A DNA stretch of 64,000 nucleotides from an uncultured Clostridia bacterium (GTDB taxonomy: Bacteria > Bacillota > Clostridia > Christensenellales > UBA1242), in contig CANQYX010000002.1 in assembly GCA_947628205.1 (NCBI GenBank), positions 4,975-68,974 of the forward strand. Reading direction: 5' to 3'. A program made the translations under genes and the position numbers. Under the pieces are notes generated by a model. That model ran no database searches and was not told the origin of the DNA. It saw only the letters and a program-made list of their open reading frames with translations. Of the stretch, positions 9,523-63,749 are shown in pieces (within the stretch, counting starts at the first letter, position 1; every line of letters starts with the position of its first letter).

Positions 9523-9697
9523 GAGATTCTTCACTTCGTTCAGAATGACACCTACCATATTTTTTAACACAAATTGACTAAATGTATATTCAATTTTTAA
9601 AACGACTGAAATAGACCACAGTCATGTTGAGCGTAGTCGAAACATCTCATTTTCTCAAAAAGATTCTTCTCTACGTTCAGAATGACACGAACATCTC
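9523..9697. repeat. Cluster of GAGAT...ATGACA hairpin repeats (yraN-rnhB spacer)
   Basis: 9523-9550 gagattcttcacttcgttcagaatgaca; 9621-9648 gtcatgttgagcgtagtcgaaacatctc (inverted copy); 9661-9687 agattcttctctacgttcagaatgaca; a partial cgaacatctc at 9688-9697. Confidence 0.85.
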
Positions 9698-12737: not shown

Positions 12738-12930
12738 GAGATTGCCACGCCAACTTGATGGTCAAGTTGCCTCGCAATGACATTGAGATACACTCCACGC
12801 GTTCGCAATGCTCACTTGGTCGGTATGACATACACAATTGTCATGTTGAGCAAAGCGAAACATCTAGATTCTTCGCTTTTACCCCACTGCGCACAAGTGC
12901 TGGTGGGGACCCCGAACGCTCAGAATGACA
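12738..12930. repeat. Array of four GAGAT...ATGACA repeats (rimM-KH spacer), one with a nested hairpin module
   Basis: 12738-12782 GAGATTGCC type; 12785-12830 GAGATAC type; 12840-12865 inverted ATGTT type; 12866-12930 GAGATTCTT type interrupted by tttaccccactgcgcacaagtgctggtggggaccccgaa. Confidence 0.88.
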
Positions 12931-25347: not shown

Positions 25348-25464
25348 TGTCATCCTGAGTAAGCGGAGCGCATCGAAGGATCTTGATAACACTCAATGAG
25401 ATTCTTCGCTATTACCCCACTGCGAAATTAATTCTTGTGGGGACCCCGTACGCTCAGAATGATA
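25348..25464. repeat. Two GAGAT...ATGACA-family repeats (pcrA-rpsU spacer), one with a nested hairpin module
   Basis: 25348-25383 tgtcatcctgagtaagcggagcgcatcgaaggatct (inverted ATCCT type). 25398-25464 gagattcttcgct[attaccccactgcgaaattaattcttgtggggaccccgta]cgctcagaatgata. Confidence 0.85.
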
Positions 25465-29611: not shown

Positions 29612-29639
29612 GAGATTCTTCGCTCCGCTCAGAATGACA
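29612..29639 (+). repeat. Minimal ('empty') GAGATTCTT-type repeat
   Basis: gagattcttcgctccgctcagaatgaca. This is the same element as at 12866 and 25398, but without the nested hairpin module between the two CGCT motifs. Confidence 0.85.
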
Positions 29640-30704: not shown

Positions 30705-30748
30705 AGATTGCCACGCGATTTTTATGGTAAAAATCTCTCGCAATGACA
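30705..30748 (+). repeat. GAGATTGCC-type repeat with a variable stem and TGG loop
   Basis: agattgccacgc-gattttta-tgg-taaaaatc-tctcgcaatgaca. Confidence 0.85.
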
Positions 30749-52467: not shown

Positions 52468-52512
52468 GAGATTGCCACGGCAAAATCATGGTGATTTTGC
52501 CTCGCAATGACA
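52468..52512 (+). repeat. GAGATTGCC-type repeat in the dnaK-dnaJ spacer
   Basis: gagattgccacg-gcaaaatca-tgg-tgattttgc-ctcgcaatgaca. Confidence 0.88.
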
Positions 52513-58149: not shown

Positions 58150-59941
58150 CTAACTTTAAAATTGTAACAAACGCTTCGCTTGGCAGGTCCACACTGCCTA
58201 AACGCCTCATGCGTTTTTTGCCCTCTTTTTGCTTTTCCAATAGTTTGCGTTTACGCGTTACATCGCCGCCGTAGCATTTGGCAAGCACGTCCTTACGCAT
58301 GGCAGAAATTGTCTCTCTAGCAATAACCTTGCCGCCAATAACCGCCTGAATAGGAATTTCAAACAGATGGCGTGGAATAACAGTTTTAAGTTTTTCGCAC
58401 AGCGCACGCCCACGCGCATACGCTTTATCTTTATGCACAATAAGCGACAGCGCATCGCAAATTTCACCGTTTAACAAAATGTCTAACTTAACTAAATCGC
58501 TTTGCTGATAGCCGTTCAGTTCGTAATCCATACTGGCATATCCCTTGCTTAGCGATTTAATTTTATCAAAAAAGTCATAAACAATTTCATTTAGCGGCAT
58601 GGTGTAAATTAAGCGCGTGCGGTTAGCGTCGATATACTGCATGTCGTGGTAAATTCCGCGCCTATCTGCGCACAAATCCATAATTCCGCCCAGATATTCT
58701 TTTGGCGTGATAATTTCCATTTTAACAATTGGCTCTTCCATTTTAGAAATGCTTGCCATGGGCGGCATTTCGCTTGGGTTGGTTACGTCGAATTCTTTGT
58801 TTTTGTTGTCATATATTTTATACTCGACGCTTGGCGCGGTGGTTATAATTTCAAGGTCAAATTCGCGCTCTAGGCGTTCGGTTATAATTTCCATGTGCAA
58901 TAAGCCCAAAAAGCCACACCTAAACCCGTGCCCAAGCGCAAGCGATGTTTCTTTTGTAAAGTGCAGGCTGGCATCGTTTAATTTTAGTTTTTCTAGCGCA
59001 TCGTTAAGTTCTTGATATTTATCCCCATCAAGCGGATAAATGCCGCAAAACACCACGCTTGTGGCCTCTTTGTAGCCATCAAGTGGCTTTTCAAGTGGAT
59101 TATTTTTTAGGGTTATTGTGTCCCCCACCTTAGTGTCCGACACATTTTTTATTGATGCGGCAATGTAGCCCACCTCTCCTGCCATCAAACACTCGGTTGG
59201 GCTGGACTGCGGAGTGTAAACGCCCACTTCGGTTACCATGAAGGTTTTGTTGGTTTGCATAAACAAAATTTCATCGCCAACTTTAACGCTGCCATCGAAA
59301 ATGCGCACCATGCTGACTGCGCCCTTATAACTATCGTAATAACTATCAAAAATAAGGGCTTTTAGCGGTTTGTTTTCGTCTCCCTTAGGGCTTGGCACGG
59401 TTTTTACAATTGCATCTAGCACGCTAGTTATATTTAAGCCAGTTTTGGCACTAATTTCACACGCTTCATCGCACGGGATGCCTATAACATCCTCAATTTC
59501 CTTTTTTGTGCCAGCAACATCCGCACTAGGAAGGTCAATTTTGTTTATAACAGGGATAATTTCCAAATTAGCATCTAACGCCAAATAGACATTGGCAAGC
59601 GTTTGAGCTTGCACGCCTTGGCTGGCATCAACCACCAAAATTGCGCCCTCGCACGCGGCTAACGAACGGCTAACTTCGTAAGAAAAATCCACATGGCCAG
59701 GGGTGTCAATTAAATTTAGCGTATATTCCTCGCCATTATATGTGTATTTCATTGTTGCGGGGGTTAGTTTTATGGTTATGCCGCGCTCGCGCTCGATATC
59801 CATACTATCTAGCATCTGCTCTTCCATATCACGCTTGGCAACCGTGTTTGTAGCTTCCATCAACCTATCTGCCAAAGTGGATTTGCCGTGGTCAATATGC
59901 GCAACAATGCAAAAATTGCGGATTTTTTCTTGTCTTGTCAT
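58142..59941 (-). CDS. lepA: Translation elongation factor 4 (LepA)
   Basis: [29 protein letters not shown] and NKIDL GTPase motifs, with the LepA C-terminal domain. Confidence 0.96.
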
Positions 59942-59982
59942 GAAAATAGTATATCAAAACAAAATTGAAATGTCAATCTATA

Positions 59983-60060
59983 GGGGCTTTTGCGCAAAAG
60001 AATTTTGCGCACGCTTGGCAGTTTTGCCAAGCGAATGTGCCAAAGGCACATTAAAGCCCC
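59983..60060. other. Cloverleaf (four-way junction) element, copy A
   Basis: P1 GGGGCTTT/AAAGCCCC encloses TGCGCAAAA-gaa-TTTTGCGCA, c, GCTTGGCA-gttt-TGCCAAGC, g, AATGTGCC-aaa-GGCACATT. All 33 base pairs are Watson-Crick. Confidence 0.8.
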
Positions 60061-60075
60061 ACCTTCAACCCATGA

Positions 60076-60104
60076 TTGTCAAAATTTTTAAGATAATTCA
60101 TATA
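60076..60104 (+). promoter_or_regulatory. Putative promoter of the first sigma gene (leaderless geometry)
   Basis: TTGTCA (60076-60081), a 17-nt spacer, then CATATA (60099-60104), followed by aataatt and the ATG at 60112. No SD. Confidence 0.35.
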
Positions 60105-60111
60105 AATAATT

Positions 60112-60786
60112 ATGAAAATTGAACCAGAACACCAATCCACATTTCCTCTTCCGCTAACAGCGGAAAAAGAAAAATATTATCTTGAAAAAATGCAACAAGG
60201 CAACAAACAAGCAAAAGAAAAACTCATTTTGCACAACATGCGTTTAGTTGTACACATTGCAAAAAAATATTTTGTAAAAAATGAAAATGAAGATTTAATT
60301 TCCATTGGATATTTTGGTCTTGTTAAAGGTTTAGAAAGTTTTCAATTGGATAAAGATATAAAACTTTCAACCTATCTTGGCAGGTGCATTGACAATGAAA
60401 TCAAAATGTATTTAAGAAAGGTTAAAACTCGCCAAAACTACGTAAGCATTGAATCGTCAACATATAAATTTAAAAATGGCAACGAACTGACATTAAACGA
60501 TATATTAAAGGACGAAAACAGCGAAACTCTACTTAACTTAATTAATGAGATTTTGGATAAAGATCAGCTAGAAAATCTTTTGCGCTGTTTAAGCGAACTT
60601 GAAGTTAAAATTATAACCATGCGCTACGGGCTATGCGATGGCATTGAGCACACGCAAAACGAAATTGCGCAATTGTTGGGCGTTAGCAGAAGTTACATTT
60701 CCCACCTTGAAAAAATCGCCATAAACAAGATGAAAGACGAACTAAAATTTAACGAAAAATTTAGAGAAAACAATAATAATTTTTAA
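60112..60786 (+). CDS. Sporulation-type sigma-70 family factor, SigE-like, lacking a pro-sequence
   Basis: 224 aa. ...FPLPLTAEKEKYYLEKMQQGNKQAKEKLILHNMRLVVHIAKKY...KLSTYLGRCIDNEIKMYLRK...SRSYISHLEK aligns with mature SigE/SigK. Confidence 0.75.
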   Translation: MKIEPEHQSTFPLPLTAEKEKYYLEKMQQGNKQAKEKLILHNMRLVVHIAKKYFVKNENEDLISIGYFGLVKGLESFQLDKDIKLSTYLGRCIDNEIKMYLRKVKTRQNYVSIESSTYKFKNGNELTLNDILKDENSETLLNLINEILDKDQLENLLRCLSELEVKIITMRYGLCDGIEHTQNEIAQLLGVSRSYISHLEKIAINKMKDELKFNEKFRENNNNF

Positions 60787-61532: not shown

Positions 61533-61556
61533 GGGCATTTTGCCCCTTATTTTTTT
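61527..61556. terminator. Bidirectional terminator between the sigma gene and the LRR gene
   Basis: aaaaaattaggggcattttgccccttattttttt. Confidence 0.75.
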
Positions 61557-63211
61557 GTGTAAATTGTATAACTTCCACTTGTGGATTTAGTAAAATATGA
61601 TGTATTGTTTAAATAAGTGTTGTTATATCCACCAATGCAAGATGTTAAAACTTTTAAAGTCCCACCTGTCTGCAACGCATTAATTAAGCGGCCGCAAGAT
61701 AAAGTATATGATGTTATTTCCCTATAAATATAGCTACTATTTAATGTAATTGTGTCAAATTTGCAATATGAGAAAAAATTTCCACTAATTCCCCTTAAGT
61801 TTGCGGGGATTGTTATAGTTTTGAATTTAAAATAAAAAGAACCATCACTAAGAATAAATTTGCATTGTTCGGGAATTGTTATAGAATTTAAATTACTGCT
61901 GCTAGTATATTTAAACATGATCATATATGGATTGTTAGAATTGCCCAAATACGCAAATCCACTATCTGTTGCACTATAATTTAAATTAACATTATGCCCT
62001 AAACCATCAAATGCATCATATCCTATATACTCCACGCTATCTGGAATAACAACATCACCTGAAACATATACGCAACCATCAAAAGCGGAATCCTCAATCC
62101 TTTGCAATGTTGATGGGAATTTTATACTTGTTAAAGAAGTACAAGAGTAAAACGCGTATCCTCCAATAGTTGTAATATTTAAATTTGACATATCTCCGCC
62201 ATTGCTTGAACCTAGCAATAATGTTTTTGAGGTTTTGTCAACTAACACATTGCATTCTTTGGTTTCCGTTTTATCTCTGCTAGTAAAAGTTGAGTTCCCT
62301 TTGTCCACATAAATTTTACTAAGACAATTATCTACGATTCCAAATGTTGTATTCCCAAAGGATTTTATCGAACTCCCAACATTAAGTTGAGATATATTAC
62401 TTCTATATAACATTTCATAAAGCTTGAAATTTTGCACATTGTTACCTATATTAAAAACAGCTCCGTCAGAATATAAGTCGCCGAAAACTCCAGCTCCACC
62501 GGAAGATGGGTCGGCGTCTGTTTCGCAATTTTTCGCATTATAATTGACAGTGGTTAGCGAAACACAATGTGCAAATGCACAGTGTCCTAAAAATGTTACA
62601 TTGTCATGAATGGTAACGCTTGTAAAATCGTTACTGTAAAACGCACTATTCCCAATAGACGTTACTTGATTAGGCACGACAAAATTCCCTGAAAATTGGC
62701 AAGAGTAAAAAGCATGATCAGAAATAGAAGTTATCCCTGTTGGTATATTTAATGTGCCGCTAAGTTTACGACAATTACAAAAAGCGTATGGGCCAATAGA
62801 TGTTAGACCATCTGGCAGTTTTAATGTTCCTTCTATCGTGTTACATTCATAAAAGGCCCTCTCTCCAATTGTTTTAACATTTTTGCCTATTTTTAGTGAT
62901 GTGAATTTTTTGGATTGATAAAATGCTCTTTCGCCTATTTCAGTAACGGGCAAATTGTTTCCGTTTTCATCAGCACGAGTGTCGGGTATTTCCAACACTG
63001 TTGTAGGATAACCATCATTATATCCCACCACCTTATATTCCGTGCCTGCCGCATTTTTTTCATATTTTAACAACTCTTTCGGAGCGGTGTATTGAATATT
63101 TACACTGCCATCTAGTTGTTGGCGGTCCAAACAAAAAACAAATGTTCCACATGCCAACAAAAATGAAAGGCATGCCATTATTGTTAAAAATTTTGTTCGA
63201 GATTTAAACAT
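61547..63211 (-). CDS. BspA-like leucine-rich-repeat surface protein with an N-terminal signal/anchor and a possible lipobox
   Basis: 554 aa. MFKSRTKFLTIMACLSFLLACG hydrophobic leader, then repeated ...IP..VTSIG..AFY.C... LRR_5-type units. GGAGGAAAG SD. Confidence 0.75.
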   Translation of the reverse strand: MFKSRTKFLTIMACLSFLLACGTFVFCLDRQQLDGSVNIQYTAPKELLKYEKNAAGTEYKVVGYNDGYPTTVLEIPDTRADENGNNLPVTEIGERAFYQSKKFTSLKIGKNVKTIGERAFYECNTIEGTLKLPDGLTSIGPYAFCNCRKLSGTLNIPTGITSISDHAFYSCQFSGNFVVPNQVTSIGNSAFYSNDFTSVTIHDNVTFLGHCAFAHCVSLTTVNYNAKNCETDADPSSGGAGVFGDLYSDGAVFNIGNNVQNFKLYEMLYRSNISQLNVGSSIKSFGNTTFGIVDNCLSKIYVDKGNSTFTSRDKTETKECNVLVDKTSKTLLLGSSNGGDMSNLNITTIGGYAFYSCTSLTSIKFPSTLQRIEDSAFDGCVYVSGDVVIPDSVEYIGYDAFDGLGHNVNLNYSATDSGFAYLGNSNNPYMIMFKYTSSSNLNSITIPEQCKFILSDGSFYFKFKTITIPANLRGISGNFFSYCKFDTITLNSSYIYREITSYTLSCGRLINALQTGGTLKVLTSCIGGYNNTYLNNTSYFTKSTSGSYTIYTKK

Positions 63212-63277
63212 CTTTCCTCCAACTAGTGCTTGTTTTATGCGGTTATTTATTTTTCCACATTTTTGCCCTATATATTC

Positions 63278-63307
63278 ATGTTAGCACATTGCCCCCCCCC
63301 CTGTCAA
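63278..63307 (-). promoter_or_regulatory. Putative promoter of the LRR gene with a G10 tract in the spacer
   Basis: On the minus strand, TTGACA (63307-63302), then GGGGGGGGGGcaatgtgc (18 nt), then TAACAT (63283-63278) with an upstream TG. The homopolymer is at 63292-63301. Confidence 0.5.
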
Positions 63308-63420
63308 GCGATTTTATGCTATTTTTTAAAATTTTTTTAAAAAAATTTTAAAAAACGGGCAATTTGTACCCGTTTTTAATAAAAATATCGTTTTTTACAG
63401 CAATTTTGCTATATAAGGTT

Positions 63421-63599
63421 GAGATTGCCACATCACTTCGTTCCTCGCAATGACATTTTTAGTGAGATTCTTCGACTTCACTTCGTTCCGCTCAGAATGA
63501 CAAGTGAGTGGTTGAGATTGCACAGCGGTTTGATGGTCTAACTGCTTCGCGATGACTTAAGAGATTCTTCGACTTCACTTCGTTCCGCACAGAATGACA
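63421..63599 (+). repeat. Array of four GAGAT...ATGACA repeats
   Basis: 63421-63455 gagattgccacatcacttcgttcctcgcaatgaca; 63464-63502 gagattcttcgacttcacttcgttccgctcagaatgaca; 63514-63557 gagattgcacagcggtttgatggtctaactgcttcgcgatgact; 63561-63599 gagattcttcgacttcacttcgttccgcacagaatgaca. Confidence 0.88.
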
Positions 63600-63602
63600 A
63601 AA

Positions 63603-63674
63603 GGGCTTTGCGCGCGCGTCAGCGCGTTGGCGGTATCGACCGCCAACTTTGCCTCGTGGCAAAGTGCAAAGCCC
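63603..63674. other. Cloverleaf (four-way junction) element, copy B
   Basis: P1 GGGCTTTGC/GCAAAGCCC encloses GCGCGC-gtca-GCGCGT, TGGCGG-tatcga-CCGCCA and CTTTGCC-tcgt-GGCAAAG. It shares its termini with copy A. Confidence 0.75.
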
Positions 63675-63698
63675 CCATTAATAAAAACCTTAATTAAT

Positions 63699-63730
63699 AA
63701 AAAAAATGGAGAACGTTTGCACATTCTCCA
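63699..63730 (-). terminator. Rho-independent terminator after rnpB
   Basis: On the minus strand, tggagaatgtgcaaacgttctcca followed by T8. Confidence 0.75.
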
Positions 63731-63749
63731 CCATCCAAAAGGATGAAAG

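Follow-up and report, generated by a model that had tools for sequence, protein, structure and literature searches.

Branched folds in which an outer stem surrounds small palindromes occur in the terminal repeats of parvoviruses and AAV and in the telomere foldbacks of Streptomyces, where the fold is read by structure-specific proteins. The REP, BIME, and REPIN sequences of Proteobacteria, which are associated with RAYT, are short GC-rich intergenic palindromes in which the pairing is kept while the sequence drifts (PMC2817692, PMC3116915). Repeats of the REP type often cluster with other repeats, and folded single-stranded DNA is proposed as their active form (PMC2817692, PMC3116915). Bacterial MITEs, among them Correia, BOX, RUP, and bcr1, are non-coding elements of about 70 to 150 bp with terminal inverted repeats; they are intergenic and lineage specific, and are sometimes modular with conserved ends (PMC2229807, PMC10969869). 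The GC clusters of mitochondria are GC-rich palindromes in an AT-rich genome (PMC4478555). These clusters, the double-hairpin elements, and the repetitive hairpin-forming elements are constrained by structure; they move from one intergenic site to another and combine or shuffle into units with several hairpins (PMC4478555, PMC2800124). The two cloverleaves described here are most likely a structurally new variant of small palindromic intergenic repeats.

We analyzed a 64-kb stretch of DNA (the window) from the core genome of a sporulating Clostridia MAG with a low GC content (about 38%). Its genes run from hslUV and topA to dnaJ, dnaK, grpE, hrcA, hemN, lepA, two sporulation-type sigma genes, and rnpB. 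The first cloverleaf, copy A, occupies the spacer between lepA and the first sigma gene. Read from 59983 to 60060, it consists of the left strand of the outer stem, GGGGCTTT; the three hairpins TGCGCAAAA-GAA-TTTTGCGCA, CGCTTGGCA-GTTT-TGCCAAGCG, and AATGTGCC-AAA-GGCACATT; and the right strand of the outer stem, AAAGCCCC. The helices (8+9+9+8) comprise 34 pairs in the helix table, and 34/34 are Watson-Crick. The four-way junction has 0 linker nucleotides, and the only unpaired bases are the 10 bases of the 3- to 4-nt loops. The first-pass annotation had described an 8-bp outer stem, three hairpins with loops of 3 to 4 nt, and Watson-Crick pairing throughout, and the helix table gives the same picture. 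It had put the hairpins at 9, 8, and 8 bp and the pairs at 33; the table corrects these to 9, 9, and 8 bp and to 34 pairs. It had reported linkers of 0 to 1 nt; the table has none. It had also placed copy A between lepA and the sigma gene, ending 15 nt before the putative -35 of that gene, and this was confirmed in the sequence, where the hexamer is TTGTCA.

The fold of copy A is far more stable than chance would provide. The minimum free energy as RNA is -47.9 kcal/mol on the + strand and -47.5 on the - strand, and as DNA it is -36.1. The z-scores range from -7.6 to -9.2, and none of 200 shuffled sequences was as stable. For both copies, the fold quality is equal on either strand, with z about -7 to -8. 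Copy A has AT-rich surroundings and is bordered by TCTATA and ACCTTC, and the GC content of the two cloverleaves is 51% and 65%, versus about 38% genome-wide. The sequence of copy A is identical, base for base, in five independent ENA/Logan metagenome assemblies. Therefore, an assembly artifact is ruled out for this copy. The cloverleaf structure is real, highly non-random, and uncatalogued.

The second cloverleaf, copy B, has 30 pairs in the helix table, of which 29 are Watson-Crick and one is G·T, and it also has 0 linkers. Its minimum free energy is -51.2 on the + strand and -48.8 on the - strand, and its flanks are ACAAAA and CCATTA. Together, 63/64 pairs of the two copies are Watson-Crick, with the one G·T as the remainder. 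All six loops are 3 to 4 nt long, and no loop is common to both copies. Because the loops are minimal and unshared and the junction bases are all paired, the cloverleaves have no conserved single-stranded part, unlike ligand-binding or catalytic RNAs. The features of both copies and their surroundings are collected in Table 1.

Table 1. Positions of the cloverleaves and of neighboring features in the 64-kb window
Feature	Position	Strand	Basis or remark
Copy A, 78 nt	59983-60060	.	Sequence, RNA and DNA folding, helix table
Copy A outer stem, 8 bp	59983-59990/60053-60060		
Copy A hairpin 1, 9 bp	59991-60011		
Copy A hairpin 2, 9 bp	60012-60033		
Copy A hairpin 3, 8 bp	60034-60052		
Copy B, 72 nt	63603-63674	.	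Sequence, folding, helix table, match to the covariance model of copy A alone
Copy B outer stem, 9 bp, GGGCTTTGC/GCAAAGCCC	63603-63611/63666-63674		
Copy B hairpins, 6, 7, and 8 bp	63612-63627, 63628-63645, 63646-63665		Loops of 4 nt
lepA promoter, TTGACA-17-TATACT	59948-59976	-	Promoter scan, 11/12 matches; conserved in L085 and L091
Putative -35 of sigma gene, TTGTCA	60076-60081	+	Inferred by sequence reading, not a scan match; 15 nt after copy A
Leucine-rich-repeat surface-protein gene	61547-63211	-	Own promoter and upstream terminator
Array of four unrelated mini-repeats (AGATNNN...NNNATGACA family)	63420-63602	+	Last member ends 3 nt before copy B
rnpB intrinsic terminator	63705-63732	-	Terminator scan; rnpB by Rfam; same terminator in L085
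Mini-repeat sites	9524-9550, 9661-9687, 12739-12782, 12839-12930, 25348-25464, 29613-29639, 30705-30748, 52469-52512, 63422-63599		

The two copies share their ends and their shape. The 7-nt termini, GGGCTTT and AAAGCCC, are identical in A and B (7/7). Hairpin 3 of copy A (AATGTGCC) and that of copy B (ACTTTGCC) match at 6/8 positions in register, and both differences are compensated. Hairpins 1 and 2 have only short cores in common (GCGC and TGGC) and differ in length between the copies, and each pairs perfectly. A MAFFT alignment of A with B did not respect the structure, and for n = 2 sequences a formal covariation statistic would have little force. We built a covariance model from copy A alone and searched it against the window and its relatives. 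Copy B was the sole other significant match in the window, with 24.1 bits on the + strand (E about 3e-4) and 20.5 bits on the - strand; the next-best match in the window scored 9.4 bits. The folding and this model agree with the earlier description of a second copy at these positions with the same termini and architecture and other hairpin sequences. From the identical ends, the same shape, and the match to the model, A and B are probably related by descent and lie in the same orientation. The copies are 3.5 kb apart, and the pair may go back to a single local duplication followed by divergence.

We then asked how often such a structure occurs elsewhere. The pattern GGGCTTT-N40-70-AAAGCCC is expected 0.05 times per window by chance and was observed twice. 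A structural scan of 2.6 Mb of other Clostridia and viral DNA required a perfect outer stem (7 bp or longer), two or more enclosed hairpins, pairing of at least 78% of the bases, and the absence of G·U. Its only three-hairpin matches were the window copies, and besides these it returned two weak chance structures with two hairpins each. No further copy emerged in the window from pattern, hairpin-chain, and sliding-fold scans, and the model of copy A found no match in 1.47 Mb of related genomes. A looser structural scan of congeners and of five same-species loci, four of which re-cover the left end of the window, found no further copy. The cloverleaf was also absent, by structural scan and covariance model, from 20.7 kb of the congener L085 and from other congener contigs.

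The search of larger collections gave chance matches only. With 14 to 16 conserved bases in all, pattern scans of very large collections are not specific. In IMG/VR, the matches listed for the termini pattern (at least 120) were chance folds only, and a tighter pattern gave 18 matches, all by chance. A pattern fitted to A and B gave one chance match in the JGI metagenomes, within apparent coding sequence. The cloverleaves had no blastn match among phage and plasmid records. To look for spurious ORFs over the copies, we compared a concatenated six-frame translation of A and B with 5.8 billion protein clusters and found nothing at E<=10. The known copies are two, both inside the 64-kb window, which is the part of this genome that the search for copies mainly covered.

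We compared the cloverleaves with several classes of known elements. Their size of 72 to 78 nt and their cloverleaf outline resemble those of a tRNA. However, A and B have no D-loop, T-loop, anticodon loop, or junction nucleotides, and their arms are 6 to 9 bp long. ARAGORN and the Rfam model RF00005 detected four tRNAs in the window and none at A or B. A tRNA or tRNA mimic was rejected on these grounds, together with the 3- to 4-nt loops; the first-pass annotation had likewise held that copy A is not a tRNA. It had also known of no described motif with this shape and had called for an Rfam search. That search, of Rfam 15 at the gathering threshold and at E<=10, returned no family for A or B; the best sub-threshold score was 15 bits, versus thresholds of 50 to 90.

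Three other candidates were rejected. An intrinsic terminator was discarded because the terminator scan scores neither A nor B, yet finds true terminators nearby. A sigma-54 promoter in the TTGGCA hairpin has the wrong spacing, from reading of the sequence. The idea that A and B are the ends of a mobile 3.7-kb unit fails because the sigma genes in that interval have syntenic orthologues in the congeners. In the comparison with MITEs, both copies carry the terminal inverted repeats GGGCTTT/AAAGCCC, within outer stems of 8 bp (A) and 9 bp (B). Presence/absence polymorphism was seen between species only, and copy A is present in all five same-species assemblies. The flanks of A and B contain no direct repeat that would represent a target-site duplication or a common flanking motif. 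In a non-systematic reading of the window genes, no transposase, RAYT-type, or recombinase gene was identified.

The surroundings of copy A could be compared with two congeners. LepA is at most 70% identical to that of the GTDB species representatives. In congener L085 (GCA_947593585.1), LepA is 93.8%, DnaK 97.9%, and DnaJ 96% identical to the window proteins, and LepA of congener L091 (Logan SRR27728183) is 95.3% identical. The lepA promoter (TTGACA-17-TATAMT, 6 nt before the ATG) is common to the three species up to ATGTCAATCTWTA, and the sequences diverge beyond it. The -35 of this promoter lies 6 nt from the edge of copy A. In all three species, lepA is without a Shine-Dalgarno sequence in the same arrangement (window 59941-59976, - strand; L085:9262-9300; L091:820-860). 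Because the promoter lies only 6 nt before the ATG and there is no Shine-Dalgarno sequence, the lepA mRNA looks leaderless. On the other side, a GTCAAA...CATATA arrangement similar to that of the window precedes the sigma orthologue of L085. Copy A is upstream of the lepA -35 (6 nt) and of the sigma TTGTCA (15 nt), and so it is outside both divergent transcription units.

The element itself is confined to the window species at this site. The lepA-sigma spacer of L091 is 80 nt long and does not contain it. In L085, homology to the window stops at 59982, one base before copy A. After ATGTCAATCTWTA, at the junction of copy A, L085 has an inserted ORF of 203 aa (L085:9303-9914) of unknown function, with no Pfam match on record. 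By comparison of these genomes, the lepA-sigma spacer is an apparent insertion hot spot. The first sigma gene (window 60112-60786) is 59 to 63% identical among the window species, L085, and L091. The second sigma gene is 85% identical across species in which LepA, DnaK, and DnaJ are 94 to 98% identical. With 59 to 63% identity versus 94 to 98% for these three proteins, the first sigma gene appears to evolve unusually fast. A sharp jump in divergence at copy A was considered and rejected, because this gene evolves fast in each of the three species.

Copy B lies about 30 nt past the rnpB terminator on the - strand, and a second - strand terminator (63351-63377) follows. L085 is the sole congener that covers this site, and there the rnpB terminator and rnpB come immediately after the second sigma gene's stop codon. 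In the window, 2,165 extra bases, a 2.16-kb species-specific insertion (61533-63699), separate that stop codon from the rnpB terminator, and homology with L085 resumes at 63700. The insertion consists, in order, of a bidirectional terminator, an LRR_5 surface-protein gene, four mini-repeats, and cloverleaf B. The promoter of the surface-protein gene, TTGACA-N18-TAACAT (63278-63307, - strand), has a G10 tract in its spacer (63294-63303, C on the + strand). A paralogue of this gene in the same genome has the same promoter and G tract (L231:1-30). The tract is a candidate switch for phase variation by slipped-strand mispairing. For A and B, the promoter scan found no promoter of their own, and both cloverleaves probably lie in non-transcribed DNA.

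The array beside copy B belongs to a mini-repeat superfamily, AG-ATNNN ... NNNAT-GACA, which is not related to the cloverleaves. It has 13 copies in the window, 10/13 of them on the + strand, versus a density of 0.46 per 64 kb in 2.6 Mb of other loci. The 5-bp outer stem of the mini-repeats covaries (ATTGC/GCAAT, ATTCT/AGAAT, ATGTT/AACAT, and ATCCT/AGGAT). Their interior takes one of two forms: a perfect but variable hairpin, in many cases closed by an ATGGT loop, or a CCCCAC...GTGGGG module. One mini-repeat is kept at the orthologous site in L085, and others (L231:1258-1448) flank the paralogous surface-protein locus L231 of the same genome. The superfamily had no match in Rfam or among plasmid records. 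Isolated look-alikes occur in other phyla, for example in the Nitrospinota MAG L077. With 13 mini-repeats in the window and copy B adjoining an array of four, this genome appears to be a permissive host for small structured intergenic repeats.

What, then, are the cloverleaves? They could be a small structured ncRNA, a tRNA-sized and all-helical four-way junction transcribed from the + strand that serves as a protein-binding scaffold or decoy. The very stable fold and the compensated differences between A and B are consistent with an RNA. So are three features of copy B: its sole non-Watson-Crick pair would read G·U in a + strand RNA but A·C in a - strand RNA, it scores slightly higher on the + strand with the A model (24.1 versus 20.5 bits), and it adjoins rnpB with the second terminator (63351-63377) downstream on the - strand. 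However, such an RNA would need a promoter that the scan missed, since no promoter-like site was found for either copy. Copy A is located upstream of two divergent promoters, between their -35 boxes, and copy B sits behind the rnpB terminator. There is no conserved loop or junction nucleotide, and the loops are minimal. A share of one wobble pair in 64 is low among RNA families, which argues against a functional RNA, as do the lack of an Rfam match and the absence of the element from species with housekeeping proteins that are 94 to 98% identical. We consider an ncRNA rather unlikely. Alternatively, the cloverleaf might be a cis-acting DNA structure of the host, extruded as a double cloverleaf under negative supercoiling, that serves as a supercoil buffer, a promoter insulator, or a binding site for a junction protein. 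According to the twin-domain model, negative supercoils concentrate between divergent transcription units. Copy A is placed exactly between the divergent promoters, with spacings of 6 nt to the lepA -35 and 15 nt to the TTGTCA; its flanks are AT-rich, and the symmetry is perfect on both strands. Such a role is nevertheless improbable, given that copy B lies between tandem units, behind a terminator and not between divergent promoters, and that the same lepA and sigma promoters serve the congeners, which lack the element. The arm sequences are also unconserved, so there is no evident sequence-specific operator.

The cloverleaves might also be folded recombination sites, similar in principle to attC, that mark the capture of gene cassettes. 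The attC sites of integrons have R'' and R' cores (RYYYAAC...GTTRRRY), extrahelical bases, and an unpaired central spacer, and they are accompanied by an integrase or a cassette array. Their logic is one of conserved ends around a variable structured interior, and the conserved ends and variable arms of A and B resemble it. Copy B is located 24 nt from the right edge of the 2.16-kb species-specific insertion, which holds one surface-protein gene, and at the junction of copy A, L085 has another inserted gene, of 203 aa. But A and B end in GGGCTTT and AAAGCCC instead of attC cores, and they are perfectly paired, with no bulges, extrahelical bases, or unpaired spacer. No integrase ORF adjoins either copy, and the gene inserted in L085 has no flanking cloverleaf. 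At its left edge, the 2.16-kb insertion has an ordinary bidirectional terminator, and the sigma genes lying between A and B are orthologous and syntenic across the three species. We regard sites for cassette capture as highly improbable.

We tentatively prefer a fourth explanation, which we hold to be quite possible: that A and B belong to a family of small non-coding palindromic repeats that acts at the DNA level, of the REP, MITE, or GC-cluster kind, in which the 7-bp termini are conserved and the self-complementary arms vary freely. The inverted-repeat termini are the sole conserved sequence, and the arms vary and still pair. Folding is far beyond chance for either strand as well as for DNA, there is hardly any G·T, and the loops have minimal size. 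Congeners with sequence at these sites lack the elements, which are GC-rich, lie beside other repeats, and probably fall outside transcribed units. The first-pass annotation had offered an ncRNA, a DNA junction mimic, or a MITE; the evidence speaks for the DNA-level, MITE-like option and against the ncRNA, and none of the three is proven. We infer mobility rather than observe it, because there are two copies, no target-site duplication, no third copy, and no transposase found.

If the cloverleaves are a DNA-level palindromic repeat, the conserved terminal inverted repeat, GGGCTTT/AAAGCCC, would be the recognition site of a mobilizing or binding protein. This protein might recognize the termini or the shape of the junction. 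In the two copies observed, the three inner arms appear to be free to change as long as they remain exact palindromes with a 3- to 4-nt center. Exact Watson-Crick pairing could be kept by repair in which one arm templates its partner (quasi-palindrome correction). Alternatively, propagation could require a folded DNA intermediate, single-stranded or cruciform, and selection could act on this intermediate. The elements, which the congeners lack wherever they cover the sites, would have entered the species after its split from them and settled in non-transcribed spacers. Any effect on the host, for example on the divergent lepA and sigma promoters that copy A parts, would be secondary.

A bolder proposal is that the cloverleaves represent a new structure-defined class of mobile DNA, the "cloverleaf element," which would pass on nothing but its four-way-junction shape and its 7-nt termini. 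Such an element would be moved or copied through a folded single-stranded or extruded intermediate, would be read by a junction- or hairpin-specific enzyme (HUH-type or resolvase-like), and would keep its arms paired by intrastrand templating. We think this conceivable but unlikely. If the family proves to be many-copied, it would be the first bacterial interspersed repeat that conserves a closed four-way junction, not a hairpin or a sequence, and it would point to a structure-reading mechanism of mobilization or repair. It would also offer a natural system for the upkeep of exact palindromes and for the effects of branched DNA extrusion on neighboring promoters, here those of the divergent lepA and sporulation-sigma genes. 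If there are just two copies, the cloverleaves are a curiosity of one poorly sampled gut Clostridia lineage.

Among the systems described at the outset, REP and REPIN sequences are similar to A and B in being short, GC-rich intergenic palindromes that drift but stay paired and that occur near other repeats. However, REPs are single imperfect hairpins of 20 to 40 nt, or pairs of such hairpins, that carry a conserved 5' tetranucleotide and number in the hundreds, whereas A and B are closed four-way junctions with three different perfect hairpins and two known copies. With MITEs, the cloverleaves share a non-coding, intergenic, and lineage-specific character, terminal inverted repeats, and conserved ends. 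A typical MITE has longer terminal repeats, is flanked by a target-site duplication, and resembles its other copies in sequence; in A and B, the repeat is 7 to 9 bp, there is no duplication, the interiors are almost wholly different, and the fold is a perfect cloverleaf. The mitochondrial GC clusters are likewise GC-rich palindromic modules in an AT-rich genome. These clusters and the double-hairpin elements are organellar and have one or two hairpins and no closing outer stem, whereas A and B are on a bacterial chromosome and have three hairpins within a closing stem. The terminal repeats of parvoviruses and AAV and the telomeres of Streptomyces, like A and B, have an outer stem that encloses small inner palindromes. 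However, those structures are three-way T or Y shapes at the ends of linear replicons, whereas A and B are four-way junctions in the interior of a chromosome.
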